From the IMG/VR virus record IMGVR_UViG_2541047854_000005: a stretch of 22,088 nucleotides of DNA; one strand, 5' to 3'. The notes under the pieces are model-generated. The model ran no database searches. It saw only the letters and a list, made by a program, of their open reading frames with translations, and was not told the DNA's origin. Source of the DNA: a virus (Duplodnaviria; Heunggongvirae; Uroviricota; Caudoviricetes). This document shows positions 4,226 to 5,819 of this stretch, piece by piece (the first letter of the stretch is position 1; each line of letters opens with the position of its first letter). A program made the translations under genes and the position numbers.

Positions 4226-4315
4226 TTGTATGGTTTCTCCATAAAGAAATAAACCGTTCAGTGGCGGTTATTGTCGGTTGCGGTAGATCTGGCGATCTTG
4301 AGAAACTGTCAGGCC

Positions 4316-4594
4316 TCATCGAGTGTGAGGCTGTATGATTCCATGGTTACCTCTGCTTTTTGAACGCATGTCACGTAACTTCTTAATGTGTTCTGCCGTT
4401 TCGATCTCTTCTGCTATCCGATCTGCATCAGCTTTATTCACAGGTTCAAAGTCATGATTAAAGCGGAACATGCTGGCGATACATGTTCTGCCTTTTCGGA
4501 TGTAGTGAACTTTGTTGTGGGTAGAACGCAGGATTTTGCAGGGAGCGCCGTGGTGGTCGACGTACCAGGTGTTAGGAAAAATGATTCTGAACAT
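4316..4594 (-). CDS. Hypothetical phage early protein (92 aa)
   Basis: ORF with GAGGTG ribosome-binding site 5 nt upstream of the ATG; part of the leftward gene string. Confidence 0.5.
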   Translation of the reverse strand: MFRIIFPNTWYVDHHGAPCKILRSTHNKVHYIRKGRTCIASMFRFNHDFEPVNKADADRIAEEIETAEHIKKLRDMRSKSRGNHGIIQPHTR

Positions 4595-4641
4595 TTTTAC
4601 ACCTCAGTTGGACGATGTTGAAATTTGCTGCTTTGAGGCCA

Positions 4642-4860
4642 TCACAGTCCCCATTGTTTGTTCTTAAGTTCGATCTCCTCCTGGCAACTTGCACAAGTCC
4701 GACAACCCTGAACGGCCAGGCGTCTTCGTTCATCTATCGGATCGCCACACTCACAACAATGAGTGGCAGATATAGCCTGGTGGTTCAGGCGGCGCATTTT
4801 TATTGCTGTGTTGCGCTGTAATTCTTCAATTTCTGATGCTGAATCAATGATGTCTGCCAT
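4642..4860 (-). CDS. TraR/DksA-family C4 zinc-finger protein (72 aa)
   Basis: CCECGDPIDERRRLAVQGCRTCASC four-cysteine motif, and a size typical of phage TraR homologues. Confidence 0.75.
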   Translation of the reverse strand: MADIIDSASEIEELQRNTAIKMRRLNHQAISATHCCECGDPIDERRRLAVQGCRTCASCQEEIELKNKQWGL

Positions 4861-4912
4861 CTTTCATTAATCCCTGAATTGTTGGTTAATACGCTTGAGG
4901 GTGAATGCGAAT

Positions 4913-4936
4913 AATAAAAAAGGAGCCTGTAGCTCC
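4913..4936 (-). terminator. Rho-independent terminator inside the leftward operon
   Basis: Hairpin ggagc-ctgta-gctcc (4922-4936) followed on the minus strand by a U-run (plus-strand A-run 4916-4921). Confidence 0.55.
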
Positions 4937-4958
4937 CTGATGATTTTGCTTTTCATGT

Positions 4959-5240
4959 TCATCGTTCCTTAAAGACGCCGTTTAACATGCCGATTGCCAG
5001 GCTTAAATGAGTCGGTGTGAATCCCATCAGCGTTACCGTTTCGCGGTGCTTCTTCAGTACGCTACGGCAAATGTCATCGACGTTTTTATCCGGAAACTGC
5101 TGTCTGGCTTTTTTGATTTCAGAATTAGCCTGACGGGCAATGCTGCGAAGGGCGTTTTCTTGCTGATGTGTCATTGAACAAGTCCCATGTCGGCAAGCAT
5201 AAGCACACAGAATATGAAGCCCGCTGCCAGAAAAATGCAT
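4959..5240 (-). CDS. Hypothetical protein (93 aa; alternative start at 5174 gives 71 aa)
   Basis: Track ORF; internal ATG at 5172-5174 starts MTHQQENALRS...; start codon uncertain. Confidence 0.4.
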   Translation of the reverse strand: MHFSGSGLHILCAYACRHGTCSMTHQQENALRSIARQANSEIKKARQQFPDKNVDDICRSVLKKHRETVTLMGFTPTHLSLAIGMLNGVFKER

Positions 5241-5250
5241 TCAGTGGTTG

Positions 5251-5442
5251 TCATACCTGGTCTCTCTCATCTGCTTCTGCTTTCGCCACCATCATTTCCA
5301 GCTTTTGTGAAAGGGATGCGGCTAACGTATGAAATTCTTCGTCTGTTTCTACTGGTATTGGCACAAACCTGACTCCAATTTGAGCGAGGCTATGTGCCAT
5401 CTCAATGCTCGTTCTTAACTCAACAGGAGATGCTTTGTGCAT
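5251..5442 (-). CDS. Hypothetical acidic protein (63 aa), first gene of the leftward operon
   Basis: GGGGAG ribosome-binding site upstream of the ATG at 5442; a divergent promoter region follows. Confidence 0.45.
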   Translation of the reverse strand: MHKASPVELRTSIEMAHSLAQIGVRFVPIPVETDEEFHTLAASLSQKLEMMVAKAEADERDQV

Positions 5443-5645
5443 ACAGCTCCCCGTTTATTATTTATCTCCTCAGCCAGCCGCTGTGCTTTCAGGGGATTTC
5501 GGGTAACAGAAAGGCCGGGAAATACCCAGCCTCGCTTTGTAACGGAGTAGACGAAAGTGATCGCACCTAGACCACTTAACCGGGCTCAGGCTCTGGCGAA
5601 GATCGCAGAAATCAAAGCGAAGTTCGGACTGAAAGGAGCAACTGT

Positions 5646-5819
5646 ATGACGGGCAAAGAGGCAATTATTCATTATCTGGAGACGCACAAGAGCTTCTGTG
5701 CGCCGGACGTTGCTGCGACAACAGGTGTGACATTAACCAGCATAAATAAGGCTGCGGCAAAAATGACGCGGGCAGGAATCCTGGTCATTGATGGTAAGGT
5801 CTGGCGAACGTTTGTTTAA
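5646..5819 (+). CDS. Small putative DNA-binding protein (57 aa), divergent from the leftward operon
   Basis: AAGGAG ribosome-binding site 8 nt upstream; MTGKEAIIHYLETHKSFCAPDVAATTGVTLTSINKAAAKMTRAGILVIDGKVWRTFV has a helix-turn-helix-like core; below the track's length cutoff, found by hand. Confidence 0.45.
   Translation: MTGKEAIIHYLETHKSFCAPDVAATTGVTLTSINKAAAKMTRAGILVIDGKVWRTFV

Follow-up and report, generated by a model that had tools for sequence, protein, structure and literature searches.

Between its integrase and its nin genes, the lambda-like prophage studied here has none of the genes with which such a phage sets up immunity and replicates, which raises the question of what occupies the interval instead. 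The window, by which we mean the whole analyzed stretch of 22,088 nucleotides (IMG/VR record IMGVR_UViG_2541047854_000005), had received a preliminary description that offered two answers for positions 4226-5819, namely a control switch of a non-canonical type or a scar left by loss of the immunity region. The ORF list and searches against Pfam and PHROG confirmed the starting point of that description: cI, cro, O, and a complete P are absent between the integrase and the nin genes, and a leftward string of ORFs of 76, 92, 72 (TraR-like), 93, and 63 aa is present. The features of the interval are the following:

2829-4037, plus strand: tyrosine integrase of 402 aa at the left prophage end, its arm-binding domain P4-like
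3995-4225, minus strand: 76-aa HTH protein, located where an excisionase would be, overlapping int and convergent with it
4316-4594, minus strand: DUF4222 protein, 92 aa, a gene of the exo-xis region (Pfam PF13973, E=1.8e-19)
4642-4860, minus strand: TraR/DksA C4 zinc-finger protein, 72 aa, equivalent of lambda orf73 (Pfam PF01258, PHROG 54)
4910-4938, minus strand: intrinsic terminator hairpin and T-run, identical to predicted lambda t2, the T-run overlapped by the predicted p1
4959-5240, minus strand: orf61-family protein, 93-aa ORF (PHROG 303, E=7e-43)
5251-5442, minus strand: orf63 (DUF1382), 63 aa (Pfam PF07131, E=3e-31)
5415-5569, minus strand: orf60a (DUF1317) remnant, codons 11-60 (Pfam PF07026, positions 11-60 of 60, E=3.5e-31)
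5568-5569, no strand: probable deletion junction, a TA common to both parents, with the arms meeting between 5569 and 5570
5570-5649, plus strand: tail of replication protein P, residues 207-233 and stop
5646-5914, plus strand: ren pseudogene, in which the 57-aa ORF 5646-5819 covers Ren residues 1-55 before a premature stop

The integrase matched the Pfam families Arm-DNA-bind_3, Phage_integrase, and Phage_int_M. The 76-aa protein matched PHROG 4745 ('DNA binding protein', E=1.8e-6) and, weakly, the Pfam model HTH_23, and its pairwise alignment with lambda Xis revealed no real similarity. Relatives annotate the 92-aa gene as DUF4222, and the position of the 72-aa TraR gene after t2 agrees with the description of lambda orf73 (PMC4195576). 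For the 93-aa ORF, relatives annotate a 71-aa product that starts at 5174, and lambda orf61 aligned almost identically with the N-terminal 46 residues of the longer reading. Pairwise alignment with the lambda counterparts also gave 60 identical residues out of 63 for orf63 and 49 out of 50 for the orf60a remnant, whose residues 11-60 are encoded by 5415-5567 and which lacks its start codon and first 10 codons. Taken together, the Pfam, PHROG, and alignment results indicated that the lambda exo-xis order orf60a, orf63, orf61, orf73 is kept on the leftward strand.

An intrinsic terminator within the leftward string, already recognized in the preliminary description, was confirmed as a hairpin followed by a T-run at 4938-4920 on the minus strand, with the sequence AGGGAGCTACAGGCTCCTT TTTTATTATT. 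The same 29 nt are found in lambda (L007) at 3192-3174, between orf61 and orf73, the latter unannotated. In a published study of the lambda exo-xis region, this sequence is listed as predicted terminator t2, mRNA levels are reported to be lower for the lambda genes that lie downstream, and a promoter for orf73, p1, is predicted to overlap the t2 T-run (PMC4195576). A hairpin at 5511-5533, inside the orf60a remnant, corresponds to the predicted lambda t1, whose sequence is given in the same work (PMC4195576). Since the window terminator is identical to lambda t2, it can be regarded as a conserved part of the lambda pL operon, and the earlier proposal that an internal terminator implies antitermination was sound, as t2 is predicted within an operon that is N-antiterminated. 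In an intact phage, polymerase modified by N would meet t2. In the window, exo, pL, nutL, and N are all absent, and orf60a abuts the tail of P.

Of P, which is about 233 aa at full length, residues 207-233 alone are present. They are identical to the lambda P C-terminus at 26 of 27 positions, the corresponding DNA is 100% identical to the intact P of E. coli AR_0369, and the same fragment is annotated in E. coli 1409 as 'replication protein P, incomplete'. A 30-aa ORF with a GTG start had been described at 5557-5649; its coordinates and the overlap of its stop with the start of the 57-aa ORF (5646-5819) were correct, but it is not a separate gene, as residues 4-30 are the P tail and codons 1-3 are read from orf60a antisense. 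The overlap itself (ATGA) joins the P stop to the ren ATG, which is the normal lambda arrangement.

The 57-aa ORF, previously taken for a DNA-binding regulator, proved to be a truncated Ren. It matched PHROG 142 ('Ren-like exclusion protein') and PHROG 7054, a profile of 57 positions, and was identical to lambda Ren at 46 of 55 aligned residues, after which two unrelated residues and a stop codon follow. Full-length Ren (about 96-100 aa) is absent from the window. In AR_0369 an identical ren sequence is annotated as 'protein ren; frameshifted; internal stop', and since this premature-stop allele occurs there with an intact early region, it must be older than the deletion discussed below. Because a PHROG of 57 positions exists and an unchanged copy stands beside an intact early region, the fragment, instead of being a dead gene, could represent a short allele that is stable and possibly functional. 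Judged by sequence similarity, all small ORFs of the interval are lambda homologues or fragments of such homologues.

These identities leave little room for a control switch. Such a switch would pair a 57-aa DNA-binding protein with the leftward operon, the two regulating each other from divergent promoters in 5443-5556. A scan for sigma-70 promoters found 0 sites in 5443-5556, and in the wider region 3900-6100 it found three against 2.9 expected from shuffled sequences, that is, no enrichment; an Rfam search produced no match in the window. What was taken for a promoter region is orf60a coding sequence that is joined to the P tail, and the junction between these two unrelated coding sequences appears to have been formed by deletion. 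Nor did we find any homologue of a repressor or of cro, the pair that face each other across an operator/promoter region in the lambdoid immunity switch. The N-terminal part of Ren does weakly match PHROGs of MarR-type and other transcriptional regulators (phrog_1687, E=8e-9; phrog_633, E=2e-3), and the short ren allele is widespread, both of which would suit a regulatory role, but in AR_0369 the same allele follows a complete P, and no intergenic region of this kind is present. With no promoter signal, a 'regulator' that is truncated Ren, and an upstream ORF that is the end of P, we consider a switch extremely improbable, the least probable of the readings weighed here.

The second answer, a scar of a deleted immunity region, was borne out, as the two arms are colinear with intact relatives and meet at a single junction. 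Along 4273-5569 the left arm is 96-98.5% identical to the int-proximal region of lambdoid phages in which orf60a is followed by exo, bet, gam, and kil, and along 5400-5569 it is 100% identical to an E. coli prophage (L003) that carries exo, bet, gam, and kil. The right arm matches the AR_0369 prophage with 100% identity, starting at 5568 and continuing to at least 9400; in that prophage, N, a LexA-family repressor, cro, cII, O, and the complete P lie directly upstream of the same P tail. Intact phages could be matched up to 5569 on the left, and the intact P of AR_0369 from 5568 on the right, so that the two matches share two nucleotides. Specifically, the window reads ...GATCGCACC-TA-GACCACTT..., whereas the intact parents read ...GATCGCACC-TA-CCCGGATATT... 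in orf60a and ...CATGGGCGG-TA-GACCACTT... in P. The microhomology is thus 2 nt long (...GCACC TA CCCGG... in orf60a and ...GGCGG TA GACC... in P). A left arm 100% identical to L003, a right arm 100% identical to L004, and a TA common to both at the joint are what a deletion scar should display. The pre-deletion state was rebuilt from two different relatives, one per arm; within the collection of complete E. coli genomes, no intact prophage with the integrase of the window was found.

A joint between two lambdoid sequences may also result from mosaicism, that is, an exchange of modules between phages that yields a viable or satellite-like element with no deletion. The left homology boundary near 4273 is typical of mosaics, and in lambdoids that carry dam the joint of the dam-methylase cassette falls within the same few nucleotides of orf60a. 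Against an exchange of modules, the junction lies inside two genes and destroys both, no substitute immunity or replication functions occur anywhere in the window, and one intact gene order fits both arms colinearly. Mosaicism is accordingly a very unlikely origin of this joint, and on the comparison with intact relatives the interval is, with high probability, the scar of one large deletion in a lambda-like prophage.

The junction is not confined to the window. An IMG/VR contig with the same integrase has an identical copy, and three complete E. coli genomes contain the junction as a single aligned piece with 92% identity; in one-genome-per-species scans no match of the junction type was obtained. 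The RefSeq annotation of E. coli 1409 reads DUF1317 (frameshifted), P (incomplete), and ren at this point. The integrase, the 76-aa HTH gene, and DUF4222 stand together beside espL1 in 70 complete E. coli genomes, and strain 2452 carries a different scar at the same locus, where the region upstream of TraR is joined to mid-ren with the microhomology AA.

On this reading, the deletion extended from the TA in codon 10 of orf60a, the gene that closes the exo-xis block, to a TA that lies 82 nt from the end of P. Judged against intact relatives, the lost segment comprised exo, bet, gam, kil, cIII, N, cI, cro, cII, O (including the origin), and the greater part of P, together with the pL and pR promoters and operators. 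What remains on the left is a promoterless group consisting of orf60a', orf63, orf61, t2, orf73/TraR, DUF4222, and the HTH protein, and on the right 'P and the already-stopped ren, followed by a TagO/VasI-like moron and the nin/Q region. An element of this composition would no longer be able to set up immunity, be induced, or replicate. The remnant genes are presumably silent, and their expression would need read-through or minor promoters within the block, of which the p1 predicted upstream of orf73 is an example.

The scar itself is ordinary, and the closest described case is exoD-peaD-renD of DLP12 in E. coli K-12. DLP12 is likewise a defective lambdoid prophage of the same family, it has the same ybcN-ninE-ybcO-rusA-ylcG-Q module, and in it, too, deletion has brought about a fusion of the leftward early region with a C-terminal piece of P, behind which stands a damaged ren. 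Moreover, one of its two scars lies at the very same TA of orf60a. In DLP12, however, this TA is the right end of a deletion that took xis to orf60a, and a second deletion joins exo to the last 312 nt of P, whereas in the window a single deletion leads from orf60a to the last 82 nt of P. The integrases and sites also differ (DLP12 at argU, the window prophage beside espL1), and K-12 has emrE-ybcK in place of the TagO/VasI-like gene. With lambda's exo-xis region, the window shares gene order, near-identical orf60a, orf63, and orf61 proteins, an identical t2 followed by an orf73-type zinc-finger gene, and the same t1 hairpin. It differs from lambda in that orf60a is cut short, that neither exo nor the pL/N system by which the region is driven is present, and that DUF4222, another HTH protein, and another integrase replace ea22, ea8.5, xis, and int. 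The scar accounts for the lack of immunity and replication genes and disposes of the idea of a new switch; as such it matters for annotation alone, since orf60a, P, and ren are here pseudogene fragments.

The only part of these results that may surprise a specialist is the recurrence of the breakpoint. The TA at 5568-5569 of the window corresponds approximately to lambda coordinate 31323, and it is the breakpoint of at least 16 different junctions, 13 of which keep the left side and three the right side. The first signs were two prophages that break after the same base, one into a fragment of cro (L002) and the other into the last 609 nt of P (L006). We then scanned IMG/VR for exact matches to a 25-nt anchor ending 11 nt before the site, which retrieved 120 contigs. 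Most of them (112) continue through an intact orf60a past the site, including point variants and four with A to C at the site, one (L110) has an IS3-family insertion 7 nt further on, and the remaining seven break precisely behind ...CCTA and run on into seven different sequences. In the 1.87 kb that follow at the same loci (exo, bet, gam), there were only five other deletion-type breaks, at five positions. Further junctions came from junction-enriched scans. Two other events fall within 7 nt to the right of the site, the IS3-family insertion and, in lambdoids that carry dam, the point at which the dam-methylase cassette is joined. What looked like breaks close by in L110 and L102 were plain insertions of IS3-family elements.

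On the left half, the 13 partners comprise the P tail, in two allelic versions, the final 609 nt of P, cro, mid-ren, ybcN, ybcO, genes for a lysozyme, a Mu-like baseplate, and a tail fibre, and four others, and all these junctions are colinear and represent deletions to the right. The three partners of the right half represent deletions to the left, namely the junction of the xis region with exoD in K-12 DLP12, one inside intD, and one in strain M37H. Shared ancestry of all junctions was rejected, because the prophages involved have at least five integrase types and the two alleles of the orf60a'-'P82 junction match different intact phages. Their P portions correspond, right as far as the joint, to two distinct intact P alleles, and differences between their orf60a portions lie within a few bases of the joint, which suggests independent events, and not inheritance, as their source. 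Literature searches on orf60a and on DLP12, exoD, and peaD yielded no mention of this breakpoint. We conclude that the TA in codon 10 of orf60a is, on good support, a nucleotide-precise recombination hot spot of lambdoid prophages.

The partner sites have a sequence preference of their own. In all 12 partners for which an intact copy was available, TA immediately precedes the break, and therefore the exchange at these sites is always at a TA common to both parents. For a 13th partner, that of strain M37H, the tally was read from the junction itself. Eleven of the 13 have G at -4, ten read G[G/C]TA, against 12% of the TA sites in background phage DNA (P = 1.6e-7), and seven read GGTA, against 6% in the background (P = 4.5e-6). 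GGTA is also frequent at other junctions of these prophages, for example at K-12 exo'-'P and in L052, L083, and L124. Microhomology as the whole explanation was rejected, since it gives the TA but not the partner G at -4 and G/C at -3, the hot-spot side reading CC-TA-CC. As a universal rule for junctions in these prophages, TA was also rejected, because L055 and the scar of strain 2452 use AA.

Several mechanisms were considered for the hot spot. No IS was present at the joint in any of the 16 junction types, and an adjacent deletion mediated by an IS was rejected because none is retained at any junction; the IS of L110 was simply inserted 4-7 nt from the site, with duplication of GAT. Bridge-RNA recombination of the IS621/IS110 type, whose target is ATCGGGCCTAC with a CT core, was rejected despite a match of 10 out of 11 positions with the site ATCGCGCCTAC, because the crossover of IS621 is at CT and here it is at TA. 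Specifically, TA, and not CT, is common to all partners, and no junction has a base other than A after CCT. A RAYT, with its REP hairpin and GTAG foot, was rejected because there is no significant hairpin at the site and the breaks follow TA, whereas RAYT cleaves at CT (PMC8266576). In folds of 60-120 nt on either strand, no hairpin or cruciform at the site was better than in shuffled sequences (z = +0.2 to -1.9). No recombinase, transposase, or nickase could be linked to the site, and no att occurred at any junction.

The pattern that remains combines one precise site of which both sides are used, a palindromic dinucleotide that never varies at the crossover, and, in the partners, a short motif on one side only. 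Such a pattern is known from site-specific enzymes that act on pseudo-sites, including serine recombinases with their 2-bp crossover, TA-specific transposases, and deletions anchored at a nick site. For recombination at quasi-sites by Cin, an identical central dinucleotide is required. Deletion series with one fixed end are known as well, as in the Int-promoted deletions of lambda at att and the deletions of pC194-type rolling-circle plasmids at the nick site. The present hot spot resembles these series in that one nucleotide-precise end is reused many times, the variable partner ends have a short motif in common, and the crossover shares 2 nt, and differs from them in having no linked enzyme and no IS or att, and in that both of its sides are used. 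By this analogy, a sequence-specific enzyme that exchanges strands at a 2-bp TA might connect the site with G[G/C]TA pseudo-sites at other places in the prophage, a proposal that we advance tentatively and consider possible but rather doubtful. As a matter of speculation, the enzyme could be serine-recombinase-like or resemble a TA-specific transposase, and either the host or a prophage could encode it.

If this proposal is true, the decay of lambdoid prophages would follow a route that is recurrent and directed, and that would also have shaped DLP12 of K-12. Should inactivating deletions of lambdoid prophages be channelled through one TA and G[G/C]TA partners in this way, the domestication of prophages in E. 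coli would be partly directed and driven by an enzyme, as opposed to a random decay.

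At least 16 different deletion junctions break at the TA dinucleotide of codon 10 of orf60a (window 5568-5569). The set comprises the junction of the window together with those of the related loci L002, L005, L006, L012, L031, L076, L086, L090, L116, L118, L129-L134, L137 (the DLP12 prophage of E. coli K-12), L139 and L141-L146, and the prophages that carry them represent at least five integrase types. Among the partner sites joined to this TA, the motif G[G/C]TA was over-represented. Insertion sequences were sought at these junctions and none were found. Just to the right of this TA, within 4-7 nt, two further events were located:

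L110, about 1931-3250: IS3-family element, with a GAT duplication at the insertion
L138, 1640-1650 and 2505-2515: joint of a dam-methylase cassette, as in dam-carrying lambdoid phages

Several kinds of rearrangement have therefore been drawn to these few codons of orf60a. DLP12 also carries a second scar (exoD'|'peaD, L137 about 2806), at which exo is fused to the final 312 nt of P; a TA is common to both sides of this joint, and on the exo side it is preceded by GAGG.

On the plus strand of the window, the integrase gene runs towards the 76-aa helix-turn-helix gene of the minus strand, and these two convergent genes overlap by 43 nt (window 3995-4037). Because 70 complete E. coli genomes keep this arrangement, the overlap is native to this phage type and not one more scar.

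To the right of the scar, the window carries the following genes:

5966-6460: TagO/VasI-like gene, 164 aa, associated with type VI secretion; the N-terminus resembles a signal peptide
9520-12279: Blc-type lipocalin lipoprotein gene (minus strand), YbgA-family gene and AraC/YdeO-like regulator

The TagO/VasI-like gene directly follows the ren pseudogene, a position at which other DLP12-like prophages instead carry emrE-ylcJ-ybcK. The lipocalin, YbgA-family and AraC/YdeO-like genes are placed after the Q antiterminator gene and are cargo, occupying what would be the expected place of late and lysis genes. Several E. coli relatives carry this set of three as well.

The left end of the window contains:

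1-698: insA/insB-like ORFs of IS1
within 1-2155, minus strand: two ORFs of 314 and 157 aa adjoining IS1

At the position corresponding to window 1-2155, E. coli strain 2452 has a frameshifted copy of the type III effector gene espL1. Considering this counterpart and the IS1 beside the two ORFs, espL1 looks disrupted in the window. Strain 2452 also has a prophage that shares both integrase and chromosomal site with that of the window, but its scar (L140 16561-16606) is different and larger: the middle of ren is fused to the region upstream of the TraR gene with an AA microhomology. The presence of a different scar at the same site indicates that this locus has decayed independently in different strains.
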